Shown here piece by piece: positions 16,465 to 23,265 of a stretch of DNA of 64,000 nt. Within the stretch, counting starts at the first letter, position 1, and each line of letters starts with the position of its first letter. Source of the stretch: Escherichia phage ECO340P2; sequence record OP172792; one strand, written 5' to 3'. The translations under genes were made by a program, and so were the position numbers. The notes under the pieces were generated by a model. The model saw nothing but the letters and a program-made list of their open reading frames with translations, was not told the DNA's origin and made no database searches.

Positions 16465-17259
16465 TTGAGCAAGTTGAACACACTTGATCAATATTACACT
16501 AACCCCGCTTATGCGGGGTTCTTATGTGATAAGATCAAAGAAATTTTTGGAGAGGAAGCTAACTACGTAGAACCATCTGCGGGAGAAGGAGCTTTCTCTT
16601 CTTGTTTTAAAAACATAACTTCTTTTGATATTGACCCTAAGTTTGAAGATTGTATTGAGGCAGATTTTTTAGCCCAATCTGTTGAGTCTGTTGGTAGTGT
16701 AACTGCTTTTGTCGGTAATCCTCCATTTGGAAAAAATGCTAGTCTTGCCATTAAATTCTTTAACCATTGTGCTGAAATGCTAGATAACGAAGGTGGTATT
16801 TGTTTTATCTTGCCTCGCACATTTCAAAAAATCTTTTTTGCACACAAACTAAATCCCCACATGCATCTTCTTTACGAAGAAGAATGTCCAAAAGGATCTT
16901 TTATTCTTCATGGAGAACCTTGGGATGTTCCTTGTGTATTCCAGATATGGATTAAACGCAACGAGAAGCGTTCTCCCGTTGTTTTAGGAGAAAATCGACT
17001 ATTTGTATTAGGCAACAGTAAAGACTACGACATAGCCGTTAGGAGAGCGGGAGCAAGTGCAGGTAAAGTGTTATCAGAAGAAGATTCTTTATCTGAAGCG
17101 TCTACCTATTTTTTAAAAGCCTTGACTTCTGATCTTAAAACGCGTATCATTGAGGCTTACCCGTTACTTAAAGCTGAAGCTAGTAAAACTGCGGGAGTAA
17201 GAAGTTTAAGTTTAAAAGAACTTCAGTGGGTTCTGGAGAACATTAGAAAGGAGGAATAG
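16465..17259 (+). CDS. DNA methyltransferase (amino-MTase, likely N6-adenine; gamma-type motif order)
   Basis: TTG start after AAGGAGG; motif I-like EPSAGEGAF precedes catalytic NPPFG; N-terminal DQYYTNP. Confidence 0.55.
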   Translation: MSKLNTLDQYYTNPAYAGFLCDKIKEIFGEEANYVEPSAGEGAFSSCFKNITSFDIDPKFEDCIEADFLAQSVESVGSVTAFVGNPPFGKNASLAIKFFNHCAEMLDNEGGICFILPRTFQKIFFAHKLNPHMHLLYEEECPKGSFILHGEPWDVPCVFQIWIKRNEKRSPVVLGENRLFVLGNSKDYDIAVRRAGASAGKVLSEEDSLSEASTYFLKALTSDLKTRIIEAYPLLKAEASKTAGVRSLSLKELQWVLENIRKEE

Positions 17260-20200
17260 TGAGTAAGTTTACATGGGATATTGAAGCAAACGGATTGTTG
17301 AATAATGACACTATTGATTATTTGGCTAGTCCTTATCGTCTCAAAGACACATTTCAAATGCACTGTATTGTCTTAGAGAACCATGAAACAGGAGAAATAG
17401 TAGCTTTCCACGATGGCCCTAAATACATTTTTGATGGGCGTCCTTATGAAGAATCAGATGGTAAATACACGTATGTTCTTAAAGAGTATGTGGCGCAAGA
17501 TTACACACATTTTCAACTAAAAGATTTCCCAGACTTTATTAATCATGAAGGTTATTTTCAAGACAAGCCGGAATATCTGGTTGAAATGGCTGTGGCACAT
17601 AACGGTATCAACTACGACTGGTTGGCTACAAAACTGTTTTACGGATTGGATTACAGTGTTAAATATAATACATGGGGTAAAAGCAAGGTAAAACTTATTG
17701 ACTCCTTGATTTTGAGTAAAGTGTTGAACCCAGATCGAAAGATTGAGGGCAAATCAGGACATAGCTTGGCAGCACTTTCTCGAAAGGCAGGTGGTGATGT
17801 AAAAATAGATTTCCGTAAAGAGATTCCAGAAGAAGATCGATTTAAGACTTTTGCTGCGGATATGCTTTATTACTGTATCTATGACAACAAAGCCAATACG
17901 AGCGTATATAATTACCTTATGGAAGAATGGGGTGATTATGATAAATGGGAAGGTCCGTTTGAACTTGAACAACGTGTAGCAGACATTATTACACGCCAGG
18001 AACACCGTGGGTTTGCTTTTAACATGAAGCAAGCAGAAGAGAACCTTGCTTTTTTGGATGCCGAAATGGAGCGTCTTCGTTTACTCGTTGAGCCTATTTT
18101 GCCACCTAAGCCAGCAACAAAAGGTTATCTTAAGGCTTTTATCCCACCTAAGTTGCAAATTAAAAAGAACTTAGAACCAACTAACCATATGATCAATTTT
18201 GCTAAGAAACATGATGGTCATTTGGAAGAGAGAGATGGGGACTGGTGGTTAGTTATGTTGGGGAAAGAGTGGAAACTGCCAGTTGCAGCAGACGAACCTT
18301 TATGTGATCCTCATATCCCTGCAACATTGAATGATACAACCCATATTAAAAACTGGCTTGTAGGTTTAGGTTGGGTACCATCAGAATATAAAGATAAAGA
18401 CTTGACTCTTAAATCTGGCACCAAGATTAAAAAGAGTGAGGAAGAACTTCAGAAAGGTATTCGAGCTTACGTTGAGCAAACTCTATCTTCTAATTTTTGT
18501 CAGGATCGTTGTGATCACCTTGAGTGCACACCGGAAACCTTAGAAAGGAAAATTCAAGAGCGTATAGCAAAAGGTAAAGGTCGCGGTCTTAAAGTGTTGA
18601 CTAACCCATGTTTTACCAAAGGTCAGGAAAAAGAAATTTGTCCTAACCTGCAAGCTTTGGGTGAGAAATTTCCTTATGCTACACAGATTGTAGAATACTT
18701 AACGTATAAACATCGTAGGAACTCTATTTTAGGTGGTGGTGCTGATTGGGAAGAAGACGAAGAAGATCAAGAATACGATAAAGGTTTCTTAGCCGCAGTA
18801 AGGGCGGATGGTCGTATTCCTACCCCAGCCGCTACATGTGATGCTGCAACCTCTCGTATGAAGCATAGGTCTGTCGCTAATATTCCTCGTGTTACATCTT
18901 TGTTTGGATGGGAGATGCGTAACCTGTTTGGTGTGGAGGTTCCTAAATACTTCCAGATCGGCTACGACTTCGACTCTTTGGAAGCAAAAATTGAATCACA
19001 CTACTGTGTGCCGATGGATGCTCAAGCTTTGACTCGTAAAGGTTGGGTAGGATATCACGACCTGAAGGAAGGGGATGAGATTTTAGGGTACAATGCTGAA
19101 ACAGGTCTGAAAGAATGGACTAAAGTAAAAGGTAAGGTCTTCTATAAAAATAGTAAGACGTTTGAGATTAAAGGGAAATCACACACTTACCGTGCAACAG
19201 CAGATCACCGTTGGTATGTTAATACCCGTAGTAAAGGGAATACTTATGTGCCTAAAGTCAGAACAACTGCCGAGCTTTGCACAGGAGATAACATTATTTG
19301 TAATGCTCCATTTAATATGGAACAAGATCAGGTAAATAGTTTAACTTCTGTTCAACAAGGTAAATGGGATGTTCCGTGGGTAGAACGTGTAGTTAATATG
19401 TCTCATGCCGAGCGTGTAGCTTTCTTGGAAGGTTTCTTGATTGCAGATGGTTACTGGCACGAACATAAACAAAAACCTGTTTGGCGTTGGGCGCAGAACC
19501 CAGGTGAACTTTTTGAAGCAGCTTTAACTGCCTCGTACCTGGTGCATGGAGGCAATATCTCTGTAGCTTTCAATACAAAAGAGCAGAAAGTAAAAGTGGC
19601 AACATTGACTAACCGCTCTCACATTCCTGTTCAAAGTTTGACTATTGAAGAGTGGGGTGTAGAGGATGTTTGGTGTCCACAAACAGAACTTGGTACGTGG
19701 GTCATGCGTCAGAAAGACTGCATTACCATCACAGGAAACTGTTGGCGGTACGAGCCGGAGCCACACGAGTATTGTAACGCTCTGTTGTTAGAGAAACCTA
19801 ATGATGTTCACACAATGATGGCAAAACGTATCACTGAAACTATCGGACGTAAATTTGAACGTAGTCCTGCTAAATCTGTTAAGTATGGTATTACCTATGG
19901 TGCACAAGCCGACAAGGTTGCTAAAACAATTGGTAGCGATAAGTTTACAGGTCAATTAGTGTTTGATGCTTTCTGGGAAGCTGCATTCCCATTGGCGCGT
20001 CTTAAAGAACGTTTAAACGATTTCTGGGTTAAGACTGGTAAACAATATGTTTTGGGTATTGACGGTCGTAAGGTTCCTACTCGTTCTGCTCACGCGATTC
20101 TTAACTCTCTGTTCCAAAGTGGTGGGGTTATCTGTGCTAAACGTGCAATGGTTATTTATGACGACATGATCGAAGAAGAAGGACTAAGTGTTGACTTCTT

Positions 20201-20591
20201 TAAAGATGACTGGAAGAATAAAGACTTCGTGCAACAAATGATTGCATATCACGATGAAGCCCAGCTTGAAGTTTCTCGTAACCTTGTAGAATTTAAATGG
20301 TTTTCACCTGAATCATTAGGTTGGAAGAAAGTAGACGATCCTGAAGAACAAAAGAAAATTGATAAAGAATGCCTTGCTAAAGTTGAAGAATGGAAGCATA
20401 ATAAGGAAAAAGAGACGGGACAAATTTGGGCTAACATTCATGAATCTCCCAAAGGTGGATGGTTTACAGCCTATAGTCGGGCAGGTGAACTTGCTGCCTT
20501 AGCTGTTACTAAGGCTGGAGAATTTTACAATCTTAATGTTCAGCTTACTGCCGGATATGATGTGGGTAATTCTTGGGCGTCCTGTCACTGA
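17259..20591 (+). CDS. Family A DNA polymerase with 3'-5' exonuclease domain, interrupted by an intein
   Basis: Exo I WDIEANGL; motif A DFDSLEAKIESHY; after the insertion DVHT, motif B RSPAKSVKYGITYGAQ and motif C IAYHDEAQ. GTG start after AAGGAGGAA. Confidence 0.85.
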   Translation: MSKFTWDIEANGLLNNDTIDYLASPYRLKDTFQMHCIVLENHETGEIVAFHDGPKYIFDGRPYEESDGKYTYVLKEYVAQDYTHFQLKDFPDFINHEGYFQDKPEYLVEMAVAHNGINYDWLATKLFYGLDYSVKYNTWGKSKVKLIDSLILSKVLNPDRKIEGKSGHSLAALSRKAGGDVKIDFRKEIPEEDRFKTFAADMLYYCIYDNKANTSVYNYLMEEWGDYDKWEGPFELEQRVADIITRQEHRGFAFNMKQAEENLAFLDAEMERLRLLVEPILPPKPATKGYLKAFIPPKLQIKKNLEPTNHMINFAKKHDGHLEERDGDWWLVMLGKEWKLPVAADEPLCDPHIPATLNDTTHIKNWLVGLGWVPSEYKDKDLTLKSGTKIKKSEEELQKGIRAYVEQTLSSNFCQDRCDHLECTPETLERKIQERIAKGKGRGLKVLTNPCFTKGQEKEICPNLQALGEKFPYATQIVEYLTYKHRRNSILGGGADWEEDEEDQEYDKGFLAAVRADGRIPTPAATCDAATSRMKHRSVANIPRVTSLFGWEMRNLFGVEVPKYFQIGYDFDSLEAKIESHYCVPMDAQALTRKGWVGYHDLKEGDEILGYNAETGLKEWTKVKGKVFYKNSKTFEIKGKSHTYRATADHRWYVNTRSKGNTYVPKVRTTAELCTGDNIICNAPFNMEQDQVNSLTSVQQGKWDVPWVERVVNMSHAERVAFLEGFLIADGYWHEHKQKPVWRWAQNPGELFEAALTASYLVHGGNISVAFNTKEQKVKVATLTNRSHIPVQSLTIEEWGVEDVWCPQTELGTWVMRQKDCITITGNCWRYEPEPHEYCNALLLEKPNDVHTMMAKRITETIGRKFERSPAKSVKYGITYGAQADKVAKTIGSDKFTGQLVFDAFWEAAFPLARLKERLNDFWVKTGKQYVLGIDGRKVPTRSAHAILNSLFQSGGVICAKRAMVIYDDMIEEEGLSVDFFKDDWKNKDFVQQMIAYHDEAQLEVSRNLVEFKWFSPESLGWKKVDDPEEQKKIDKECLAKVEEWKHNKEKETGQIWANIHESPKGGWFTAYSRAGELAALAVTKAGEFYNLNVQLTAGYDVGNSWASCH
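19005..19739 (+). mobile_element. Intein (about 245 aa) in DNA polymerase, with a LAGLIDADG-like motif
   Basis: Starts with Cys right after motif A; block-B-like TADHRW; LEGFLIADGYW resembles LAGLIDADG; ends ...ITITGN followed by Cys +1. Penultimate Gly instead of His is non-canonical. Confidence 0.55.
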
Positions 20592-20610
20592 TCTAACATA
20601 TTGTTTTATA

Positions 20611-20630
20611 AGGGGCTTCTGCCCCTTTAT
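20611..20630 (+). terminator. Rho-independent terminator after DNA polymerase
   Basis: AGGGGC-TTCT-GCCCCT followed by TTAT. Confidence 0.6.
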
Positions 20631-20640
20631 AGGAGGAGAT

Positions 20641-20832
20641 ATGCATTACGATTTAGATTGTCTTGGTATGCCTTACCTACCAGATGAATTCGAAGGTGAA
20701 GAAGAACGTGAATGGGACGATGGGGATATCCGTTGTTGGTCTTGTGGTAAAGATATGTCTTATGAACAACATATGCACAATGATGGTTTCTGCATACATT
20801 GTTATAATGAAATTGATCTGGAGGAAGATTAA
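20641..20832 (+). CDS. Small acidic zinc-ribbon-like protein
   Basis: ATG after GGAGGAG; CxxC...CxxC; acidic tails. Confidence 0.4.
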   Translation: MHYDLDCLGMPYLPDEFEGEEEREWDDGDIRCWSCGKDMSYEQHMHNDGFCIHCYNEIDLEED

Positions 20833-20999
20833 TGGGAAATGGTATCATGATTTGCTATAAAATTGTGCGTATTGTCGGAGACGAAGTTACCACTCGGTAT
20901 TTTATGATAGAGTCTCAAGCCGATGAGGTTTACAATGACTGGCTTGAAAAAGGTGGATACGATTTTGTATCTAAAGAAACTTTCCGTTTAGAAGTATAA
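20832..20999 (+). CDS. Small hypothetical protein (55 aa, not in ORF track)
   Basis: Hand-read ORF; ATG 20832 overlaps upstream stop; weak support. Confidence 0.25.
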   Translation: MGNGIMICYKIVRIVGDEVTTRYFMIESQADEVYNDWLEKGGYDFVSKETFRLEV

Positions 21000-21009
21000 G
21001 GAGAAAACA

Positions 21010-21228
21010 ATGCGTAAATTAGTGAGCTTTAATGTTTCAATTCTTGTTGATGAACAAAATGAAGATGTTATTAAAGGTCTTGCAAATAAGATTGCAGGTG
21101 GAATGACGGAAGCTGAAGTGTGGGAAGAATGTGCTCGACTTTATGAGGAAGGTGTTATTGAGGTCTTAGGGGATGAGATTAATATGGACGATGTTGTAAA
21201 AGTAACTGTGGAGCGTATCAATGACTAA
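21010..21228 (+). CDS. Hypothetical protein
   Basis: ORF track; AAGGAGAAAAC RBS. Confidence 0.4.
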   Translation: MRKLVSFNVSILVDEQNEDVIKGLANKIAGGMTEAEVWEECARLYEEGVIEVLGDEINMDDVVKVTVERIND

Positions 21229-21814
21229 ATCAAAACAAATCAATATTGCCAAAGAAATTCTTACCATATTAAAGATCGCTGATCCTAATTCTGTCTTGGC
21301 TGGCGGTGCTGTTCGTGATTGGCGTATTCTTGATATTGCTGGACGTGATCTGGATTTCTATACATCCCTTCCTGCACATCGGACTGAAGAACAAATACAA
21401 GGATTAATTGCATCTGCTTTAATGGGAACCAATATTCGTAAACTAGGAAACAAAGAGGCTTCTGACAATTATGAAGGTGTTACTGGTCTTAAACACGTTT
21501 TTGAGTTTGAACGTGATGGTCAGCTTTGCAACCTTATGATTATGGAACCAAGCGTAATGACAACCTTTCTAAATGAGTTCGATCTGTCCATCTGCCAGGC
21601 TGCATTTGATGGGAAGGACTGTTATTATTCTAAAGATTTTGAAACAACCTTGGAAACAGGGATCTGCTTCTTGCACAAAGATGTTAGAGAAGATGCCAAA
21701 CATGTTATTAAAATTGCTACACGTTTCCCATATCTTCGTTTTGTGAAAGAGGTTAAGGTTCCACGTCCACCTCAAGTAGATACCAGATTGGAAGAAGATG
21801 ATATTCCTTGGTAA
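21221..21814 (+). CDS. Minimal nucleotidyltransferase, CCA-adding/poly(A) polymerase head-domain-like
   Basis: Motif VLAGGAVRDWRILDIAGRDLDF matches the GG.VRD...D.D catalytic signature of CCA-type nucleotidyltransferases; only about 197 aa, so head domain only. Confidence 0.5.
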   Translation: MTKSKQINIAKEILTILKIADPNSVLAGGAVRDWRILDIAGRDLDFYTSLPAHRTEEQIQGLIASALMGTNIRKLGNKEASDNYEGVTGLKHVFEFERDGQLCNLMIMEPSVMTTFLNEFDLSICQAAFDGKDCYYSKDFETTLETGICFLHKDVREDAKHVIKIATRFPYLRFVKEVKVPRPPQVDTRLEEDDIPW

Positions 21815-21821
21815 TTAAAGC

Positions 21822-21851
21822 TTGACAATATTAAACATTTTATGATAGGAT
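21822..21851 (+). promoter_or_regulatory. Candidate promoter (TTGACA with weak -10)
   Basis: TTGACA 21822-21827; best -10 is TAGGAT at 18-nt spacing. Confidence 0.3.
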
Positions 21852-22268: not shown

Positions 22269-23201
22269 ATGTCCGTAATTAATACTGAAACTGATCGTAA
22301 AGGCAAAACCGTAACTTATGCAACTGGTATCGTAGACTACGTTAAACTGGATAAATTCGCTGAACCTAAAACTTTCCATTGGGAAGGAAAAACGATTGTT
22401 TCAACTCACCGAGCTTCTCTTGTTCTGAAAGAGAAAGGTGCTAAACCAGATGAGAAAGGTGTTTGGATTTCTCTTGGTGACATTGAACTGAAAGAAGGTT
22501 ATGAAAACCTGCAAGTCAAAGAAGGTGATAATTGGATCACTATTGAAAAAGGTGTAGAAGTAAGTATTGATATTGATCGCGTTGATAATAAAGGCGGTAA
22601 AACTTACTACAATACTAAAAAATCTCGTATTACAGTATTGTCTACCGAGGGTGTTCAGAAGTCTAACAAATCTTCTGGCAATAAAGGTTCCAACGATGCT
22701 GCTCCTAAGCAATCCTATAAAAAACGTGATACTGTAGGTCTGGAAACTGGTCACGCAGTAAATGGTGCACTGGAACTGATTCGTAATGGTGTTAAAGGCG
22801 ATGCTTTCGATATCGCTGGGGTTGTTCAATCTGCAACTGTCACGCTGAAATCGGAAATTGCTGAATCTCGTGGCGTTGATATTAATGATTATGATCTTGG
22901 GGCATCTGTTGGTCACGCTATCCTCAATGCTTGTAAAGACCATACCATTAAGACTGTATCTGTAGAAGATTTGATTGACTCTGCTCGTAAAGTTCTAGCT
23001 TTGTCTGATAAAGTTGCTGCTGCCATTCGTGGTTCCGTAGAACAACCTAAGAAAGAAGAGAAGAAAGAAGTTAAAAAGCCTGAACCACAACCAGAACCAA
23101 CTCCAAGCAATCAAGAAGAACCTCCAATGGACTTCGATGATGATATTCCATTTGCTCCTATTGGACTGCAATATGGTCGAAACTTCCTGCATTGCTTCTA
23201 A
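22269..23201 (+). CDS. Putative ssDNA-binding protein carrying a host-SSB-like acidic MDFDDDIPF motif 15 aa before its C-terminus
   Basis: MDFDDDIPF is identical to the E. coli SSB C-terminal tip but is followed by APIGLQYGRNFLHCF; GGAG RBS; last plus-strand gene before a bidirectional terminator. Confidence 0.5.
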   Translation: MSVINTETDRKGKTVTYATGIVDYVKLDKFAEPKTFHWEGKTIVSTHRASLVLKEKGAKPDEKGVWISLGDIELKEGYENLQVKEGDNWITIEKGVEVSIDIDRVDNKGGKTYYNTKKSRITVLSTEGVQKSNKSSGNKGSNDAAPKQSYKKRDTVGLETGHAVNGALELIRNGVKGDAFDIAGVVQSATVTLKSEIAESRGVDINDYDLGASVGHAILNACKDHTIKTVSVEDLIDSARKVLALSDKVAAAIRGSVEQPKKEEKKEVKKPEPQPEPTPSNQEEPPMDFDDDIPFAPIGLQYGRNFLHCF

Positions 23202-23241
23202 GGTTTGTTTCAAGTGCGTGAGGTTGAATGCTGAATAAAAG

Positions 23242-23263
23242 AAAGGAGCCAAATGGCTCCTTT
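23242..23263. terminator. Bidirectional terminator at the convergence of early (+) and late (-) transcription
   Basis: AAAGGAGCC-AAAT-GGCTCCTTT flanked by A-run on one side and T-run on the other. Confidence 0.75.
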
Positions 23264-23265
23264 TC

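Follow-up and report, generated by a model that had tools for sequence, protein, structure and literature searches.

A small nucleotidyltransferase in the replication module of a phAPEC8-like phage and a tentative link to Gad2-type counter-defence

The gene, its neighbours and its relatives

Escherichia phage ECO340P2 belongs to Phapecoctavirus, that is, to the phAPEC8-like E. coli myoviruses of ~150 kb, and the stretch of its record OP172792 analysed here (the window) is 64,000 nucleotides long. [quoted passage not shown] The features are as follows.

17122–17150, plus strand: sigma-70-like promoter match 5' of the polymerase gene (consensus match only)
17259–20591, plus strand: family-A DNA polymerase gene, 5' of the nucleotidyltransferase gene, with a 245-aa intein-like insert at nt 19005–19739
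20536–21228, plus strand: three small ORFs (PHROGs 25582, 22931 and 25475), the last of which overlaps the nucleotidyltransferase start codon
21221–21814, plus strand: nucleotidyltransferase ORF, 197 aa, stop codon included (ORF list and translation)
21822–21851, plus strand: sigma-70-like promoter match (TTGACA, 18-nt spacer, TAGGAT, with TG) right after the nucleotidyltransferase stop codon
22269–23201, plus strand: phage SSB gene, 455 nt 3' of the nucleotidyltransferase gene

A GGAG sequence lies 7 nt 5' of the nucleotidyltransferase start codon, and the ATG overlaps the stop codon of the preceding small ORF. The polymerase and nucleotidyltransferase genes are probably part of one transcription unit, and the promoter match directly after the nucleotidyltransferase gene suggests that this gene is the last in its unit. 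Farther downstream, the terminator-like sequence is a perfect bidirectional hairpin (23241–23264) with a 10-bp stem and T-runs on both strands, which separates the convergent genes of SSB and an 890-aa tail protein.

The 2.8 kb around the nucleotidyltransferase gene are matched at 95–99% identity by 67 phage records. In phAPEC8, a protein that is 100% identical is named 'putative tRNA nucleotidyl transferase / poly(A) polymerase', and the tRNA nucleotidyltransferase assignment made by the initial annotation of this DNA is thus already in GenBank. The protein matches PHROG 10174 (E 7.9e-63) and PHROG 1614 (E 1.8e-11), both labelled 'nucleotidyltransferase'. No match was found among the NCBIfam models or the PADLOC defence-system models, the latter including those for MNT antitoxins, MenT-AbiEii toxins and CBASS-type nucleotidyltransferases. 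At E ≤ 1e-3, a viral structure library yields 123 matching proteins, among them many podovirus proteins of 167–230 aa whose annotation is nucleotidyltransferase or poly(A) polymerase head domain, while a profile of close relatives retrieves 1044 cluster representatives among 1.8 billion proteins, nearly all 175–230 aa long and with clusters named only 'nucleotidyltransferase' or 'hypothetical'. Longer members were considered as domain fusions, and this was rejected, as they carry no extra Pfam or PHROGs domain and seem to be ORF calls that were run together. Most family members are acidic, with a median pI of 5.9 and a pI of 5.3 for the ECO340P2 protein.

A shorter form is found in ICP1 phages, where the homologue of Vibrio phage ICP1_2004_A (locus L003, 3956–4375) has 139 aa and ORF223 in the viral structure library has 137 aa. 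The ICP1 homologue, on whose short form PHROG 10174 is based, ends directly after the FxxSxC motif, and thus without the C-terminal third of the family; its gene may have been truncated or split.

The family is associated with DNA replication and nucleotide metabolism. In phi92, whose protein is 37% identical, the genes for polymerase, nucleotidyltransferase, gp157 and SSB stand in the same order as in ECO340P2, and in a metagenomic relative (P0016) the nucleotidyltransferase gene follows those for a primase-helicase and DNA_pol_A. The copy in a Vibrio podophage overlaps a 5'-3' exonuclease gene and lies three genes from the likely polymerase, and other homologues are found among genes for ribonucleotide reductase (RNR), glutaredoxin and ThyX, or for thymidine kinase, NT5C and RNR. 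Among the Autographiviridae, the gene of the more distant PHROG 1614 protein is adjacent to the family-A DNA polymerase gene or one gene away from it in all five genera sampled: polymerase then nucleotidyltransferase in the Klebsiella phage fHe-Kpn01, the reverse order in phi80-18, DU_PP_II and CF7, and polymerase, one gene, nucleotidyltransferase in TCU_VP01_ZB. Others are found in early-gene regions, where no replication gene or informative neighbour lies nearby, and the adjacency to polymerase may be due in part to shared middle-gene timing. No RNA-repair genes are consistently found near family members. On rV5-like metagenomic contigs, a weak match to an RlaP-type nucleotidyltransferase lies beside a UvrD-like helicase (L021, 1–981, minus strand), and an 80-aa ORF gives a weak match to RNA ligase (L007, 4326–4568, minus strand). 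These matches are 3.5–5 kb from the family members and on the opposite strand, too weak and too distant for an RNA-repair context.

Fold and active site

[quoted passage not shown] With these enzymes the protein has in common the N-terminal helix, the GGAVRD...DxD signature, a five-stranded sheet and the first neck helix, but it has only about half their length and lacks the body and tail domains, by which class II enzymes bind the acceptor/T-arm and keep the tRNA elbow anchored (PMC3925840). Sequence comparisons cover the N-terminal part of the fold: the Pfam model PF01743 (PolyA_pol head) aligns with residues 26–65 only and scores 13.9 bits against a gathering cut-off of 23, the family profile finds PDB entries at E 0.0025 over positions 7–52 only, and a search of the PDB with the single sequence returned only noise. 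The protein is thus confirmed as a stand-alone class-II-type core consisting of a head domain and one neck helix. The initial annotation had named structure prediction and comparison with CCA-adding enzymes as a check and is borne out in what it said of the protein itself, as GGAVRD is found at residues 28–33 and DLD at 43–45, and the chain stops at residue 197, after one neck helix, without body and tail domains. Supply of these domains in trans by an adjoining ORF was considered and rejected, since those next to the gene are short and fall into no family that is known. Streptococcus pneumoniae NP_344798.1 (PDB 2LA3) is a bacterial stand-alone 'CCA-adding enzyme head domain', with no sequence-level relation detected. 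In the literature on the phAPEC8 nucleotidyltransferase, 2LA3, minimal CCA-adding enzymes of phages and phiKMV-type nucleotidyltransferases, no biochemical characterisation was found.

The motifs of the protein are located as follows.

21302–21355, plus strand: motif A, G28-G29-A30-V31-R32-D33-W34...D43-L44-D45, the NTP/metal-binding loop and two catalytic Asp
21503–21532, plus strand: beta-hairpin with E95 (nt 21503–21505) and N104 (nt 21530–21532)
21578–21610, plus strand: F120-D-L-S-I-C125-Q-A-A-F-D130, in place of class II motif B (RRDFTINA), with neither of its two Arg
21689–21733, plus strand: helix E157-D158-A-K-H161-V-I-K164-I-A-T-R-F169-P170, the counterpart of the first neck helix in class II enzymes

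Among 187 family members, G28, G29, R32, D33, W34, D43, D45, Y84 and K164 are invariant or nearly so, a pattern that argues for an active enzyme. The position of the canonical third catalytic carboxylate is variant. N104 sits in the column of the canonical carboxylate, which is Glu74 in the Aquifex aeolicus A-adding enzyme (PMC3925840), and the same column holds D115 in fHe-Kpn01 Gp22 and Q88 in Gad2; within the family it is Q in 78% and N in 19%. On the strand beside N104 lies E95, a position that is acidic in ~70% of the family. In the four family sequences that carry Asp in column 104, column 95 is R, K or G, and the podoviral PHROG 1614 proteins keep the canonical Asp at column 104 (hDhLF) and have Lys where the ECO340P2 protein has E95, which suggests that the carboxylate has moved to the adjacent strand in the family. 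In size and architecture, these podoviral mini-nucleotidyltransferases (e.g., fHe-Kpn01 Gp22, 182 aa, matching PHROG 1614 at E 1e-39) are like the ECO340P2 protein.

The RRD of class II motif B serves in ribose recognition. It is absent from the family, in which F120 is conserved at this place, and the alignment sets N-E-F-D of the ECO340P2 protein against K-R-R-D of the E. coli CCA-adding enzyme and Q-R-R-D of PcnB. In class II enzymes, an Asp and an Arg of the neck domain (EDxxR) template CTP/ATP. The ECO340P2 protein has E157-D158 at the place of EDxxR, but conservation of this ED does not extend through the family, and no templating Arg stands out, its position being taken by H/Y or by K164 (conserved in 98% of the family) depending on which of two possible alignment registers is used. 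The placement of motif D is not confident, because the hhalign comparison of the query family with the E. coli CCA-adding enzyme (33.8%, 40 columns) covers motif A only.

Kinship with Gad2 and the C-terminal tail

Precomputed Pfam matches label many relatives of the protein as PF26128 (Gad2). Among them are P0009 (60% identity) and P0016 (37%), while P0001 (97%) has no such match. As reference, Gad2 of Bacillus phage SPbetaL7 was used (OQ921347.1, 109563–110765; 400 aa, WIT28108.1). With hhalign, the query family aligns with Gad2 alone at 83.7% (E 8e-6) and with an alignment of 39 Gad2 sequences at 96.6% (E 5e-10) over 112 columns (query 19–149, Gad2 22–136), and is thus much nearer in profile to Gad2 than to the E. 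coli CCA-adding enzyme. An HMM built in this analysis from Gad2 homologues matches 89 of 196 targets at E ≤ 1e-3, including P0016 (2e-10), phi92 gp158 (6e-6) and P0009 (4e-5). It does not match the E. coli CCA-adding enzyme or PcnB, and the podoviral Gp22 group, which is weakly similar to Gad2, is marginal. The ECO340P2 protein itself reaches E 0.08, below significance, and its 97%-identical relative lacks the PF26128 match. From these comparisons, homology with Gad2 is solid at the level of the family and transitive for the 197-aa protein itself.

Where the two proteins align, identity is ~19–24%. Both are phage-encoded and have in common AGGA...DxD(I/F)Y and a FDxxxCxxAFD motif (FDFTVCMGAFD in Gad2, FDLSICQAAFD in the ECO340P2 protein), and the Gad2 signature AGG...DxD...Q...FDxxxC corresponds to A27-G28-G29, D43/D45, N104 and F120-D121...C125. 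At the third-carboxylate column Gad2 has an invariant Gln, the residue found in most of the query family. The two differ in that Gad2 lacks the R32-D33-W34 triad that the query family has in common with class II enzymes, and in their C-terminal parts. The alignment ends at Gad2 residue 136, after which the ECO340P2 protein continues for 48 residues of unrelated sequence, whereas Gad2 has ~230 extra C-terminal residues, which may be needed for anti-Gabija activity. Many Gad2 homologues are shorter than that of SPbetaL7, with 190–335 aa. In SPbetaL7, Gad2 is encoded in a dedicated anti-Gabija locus with no adjoining polymerase. The phage needs Gad2 to resist Gabija, expression of Gad2 alone is toxic, a homologue from a Brevibacillus prophage also blocks Gabija, and the sole predicted domain of Gad2 is a nucleotidyltransferase (10.1101/2023.05.01.538930). 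In a 2026 review, the mechanism of Gad2 is listed as unknown, and inhibition of RecBCD and DNA ends are given as what Gabija senses (PMC12904381). Because the mechanism is so listed, stating that an enzyme works like Gad2 specifies no chemistry.

The C-terminus of the ECO340P2 protein is a further difference, as Gad2 has no such tail.

21788–21811, plus strand: C-terminal tip L-E-E-D-D-I-P-W, of low model confidence and probably flexible

The sequence EEDDIPW resembles the DDDIPF tip of SSB, which in E. coli SSB stands at the very end (PPMDFDDDIPF) and is a known handle for many SSB-interacting proteins (PMC5872125). In six frames of the 64-kb window, the pattern DD[ILV]P[FWY] occurs only twice, 1.3 kb apart, in the nucleotidyltransferase tail and in the phage SSB. 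In relatives down to 58% identity the linker varies and DDIPW is kept, with DSFPW in one sequence. Given this variable linker, the retained tip and the low model confidence, the tail behaves, at the level of sequence, like a short linear docking motif. Neither phi92 gp158 nor most of the wider family has the DDIPW tail, which for this reason is an addition specific to the Phapecoctavirus-like clade. An acidic/aromatic C-terminal tail as a trait of the whole family was considered and rejected, as it is found in only 19 of the 187 members and shows no consistent pattern in the podoviral proteins.

The C-terminal tail of E. coli SSB has a near-copy in the phage SSB (PSNQEEPPMDFDDDIPF in the phage, PSNEPPMDFDDDIPF in E. 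coli), where it is not terminal. PPMDFDDDIPF (DDIPF at nt 23138–23152) is followed there by 15 more residues (APIGLQYGRNFLHCF), which are also conserved in phi92.

Possible roles, and further features of the window

We tentatively favour a replication-linked, Gad2-type counter-defence enzyme, a proposal that we rate at somewhat less than an even chance. What the analysis shows is a conserved gene that looks expressed and is placed among replication genes, a fold with conserved catalytic residues and a variant third-carboxylate position as in Gad2, family homology with Gad2, and the tail motif, while the activity, the acceptor, a target associated with replication, the anti-defence role and the function of the tail are inferred. 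The protein would be a member of a Gad2 / phage mini-nucleotidyltransferase family with a class-II-like head, a neck helix and a variant DxD...N/Q site, and would be a catalytically competent nucleotidyltransferase expressed together with the phage DNA polymerase. NTP or dNTP with Mg2+ would be held by the GG loop and D43/D45, and the nucleotide would be transferred to a hydroxyl acceptor. Its most likely role would be to shield phage DNA during replication from a nuclease system that senses DNA ends, such as Gabija, a role put forward because Gad2 is the only functionally tested relative. Through its flexible EEDDIPW tail, the enzyme may dock on proteins that recognise the C-terminal tip of SSB. 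Going further, it could be speculated that this mimic of the SSB tip tethers the enzyme to the replisome or to SSB clients, where it would nucleotidylylate DNA or primer ends, or an SSB-reading helicase or nuclease, and so blind Gabija-type defences. In this full form the proposal is rather unlikely, though if true it would reveal the chemistry of the Gad2 family and explain the mini-nucleotidyltransferase genes beside DNA polymerase in many unrelated phages.

The initial annotation had suggested that the protein, together with the tRNA genes of the phage, could repair damaged tRNA 3' ends or act as another nucleotide-adding enzyme.

63107–63673, minus strand: genes for tRNA-Met, tRNA-Ile, tRNA-Pro, tRNA-Gln and tRNA-Gly (ARAGORN, Rfam)

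These five genes lie 41 kb from the nucleotidyltransferase gene and on the opposite strand, and all five encode CCA (read in the sequence; the ARAGORN calls end 3 nt past the Rfam model ends). No tRNA gene was found in a Vibrio podophage of 47 kb that has a clear homologue (31% identity, E 6e-18), nor in any of 17 loci around homologues, ~180 kb in total, with no sign that the family is linked to phage tRNA sets. A minimal CCA- or A-adding enzyme that restores host or phage tRNA ends trimmed by nucleases or defences would fit the nearest solved folds, the GGAVRD...DLD signature and the E157-D158 at the place of EDxxR. Defences that cut tRNA 3' tails exist (PMC12851939), and some phages encode full-length CCA-adding enzymes (PMC7824862). 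Against tRNA repair stand the missing body, tail and RRD, the ED that is not conserved, the templating Arg that is not evident, N/Q at the third-carboxylate column, the acidic protein, and the tRNA genes that already encode CCA. The homologue loci contain neither tRNA genes nor consistent RNA-repair neighbours, the profile points to Gad2, and the gene is part of the replication module and adjoins the DNA polymerase in several unrelated lineages of phages. In addition, distant relatives are toxic when over-expressed, which fits promiscuous activity better than benign repair. Toxicity in P. putida is described for gp22 of Emajogi, whose homologues bear the annotation Gad2 family and which is followed in number by gp23, a primase/helicase; fHe-Kpn01 Gp22 is toxic in E. 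coli (PMC7291057). The MenT/AbiEii toxins are likewise small Pol-beta-fold enzymes that are toxic, and they add nucleotides onto tRNA 3' ends (PMC10435456, PMC11541572). Repair of tRNA ends is therefore unlikely, and of the initial annotation the class-II nucleotidyltransferase core and the reasonable fallback of another nucleotide-adding enzyme are what we retain.

Unspecific tailing of RNA 3' ends, in the manner of a poly(A) polymerase, could mark host RNA for decay and so shut off the host and supply nucleotides for phage DNA. We regard this as improbable, as the protein is acidic and, unlike PcnB and CCA-adding enzymes, has no C-terminal domains after the catalytic core, the variant third-carboxylate position would be unusual for a processive polymerase, and the closest relative by profile is Gad2 and not PcnB. 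A further alternative is a replication accessory without a role in defence, docked by its tail, that adds to or caps DNA or primer 3' ends or nucleotidylylates a protein of the replisome. The repeated adjacency to genes for family-A DNA polymerase, ligase and exonuclease in several lineages and the SSB-tip-like tail speak for it, and the loss of RRD could permit the use of dNTPs. Yet the distribution of the gene is patchy, as is typical of accessory or counter-defence genes, and to our knowledge most T7-like phages lack it. Moreover, the only tested relative is an anti-defence protein, and no class-II-type enzyme acting on DNA was found described in the literature searched, which together make a purely accessory role fairly improbable. 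Finally, the protein could be a largely non-catalytic binder or decoy, in which the DDIPW tip competes with SSB for host SSB-interacting proteins and the nucleotidyltransferase fold is a scaffold. While the lost canonical third carboxylate and a tip strongly conserved behind a variable linker are consistent with a decoy, GG, DxD, R32, W34, Y84 and K164 are near-invariant across the 187 diverse sequences, most of them tail-less, which points to selection for catalysis and renders a decoy very unlikely.

Databases already contained the gene with its 'tRNA nucleotidyltransferase' label, and some relatives are assigned to the Gad2 family by Pfam. In the literature searched, we did not find described the Gad2-like DxD...Q core that the family has instead of a CCA-adder active site, the recurrent adjacency of mini-nucleotidyltransferase and DNA polymerase genes across unrelated phages, a family without a link to tRNA genes, or the SSB-tip mimic in the phAPEC8-like clade. 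Thousands of phage genomes label such small proteins 'tRNA nucleotidyltransferase / poly(A) polymerase' from one short motif, and the present comparisons suggest that for this Gad2-like family the label is probably misleading. A small member from an E. coli phage, with a tail like the SSB tip, offers a tractable system for the targets of Gad2-type enzymes, and could show how phages evade DNA-end-sensing immunity such as Gabija.

Apart from the nucleotidyltransferase, the module carries traces of mobile elements. The insert in the polymerase gene (19005–19739, plus strand) comprises precisely 245 aa (aa 583–827), begins with Cys, ends with ...TGN and is followed by Cys. It contains a LAGLIDADG-like sequence (FLEGFLIADGYW), and its flanks match the polymerase of phage Mt1B1_P17, which has 865 aa and no insert, at 99.5–100% identity. 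By these sequence features, the insert resembles an intein that carries a homing endonuclease. In Mt1B1_P17, an additional 'endonuclease' gene of 408 nt (L002, 8761–9168) lies between the SSB and tail protein genes, and this gene is absent from the ECO340P2 window (between ~23200 and 23266). This extra gene and the polymerase intein suggest that mobile endonuclease genes come and go in the module.

Between tRNA-Ile and tRNA-Met, a degenerate tRNA-like sequence is found (63192–63261, minus strand), with good acceptor and T arms, a shortened anticodon region and no CCA after it. It scores 24.6 bits with the Rfam tRNA model (gathering cut-off 29), is not called by ARAGORN, and may be a tRNA pseudogene or an unusual tRNA.
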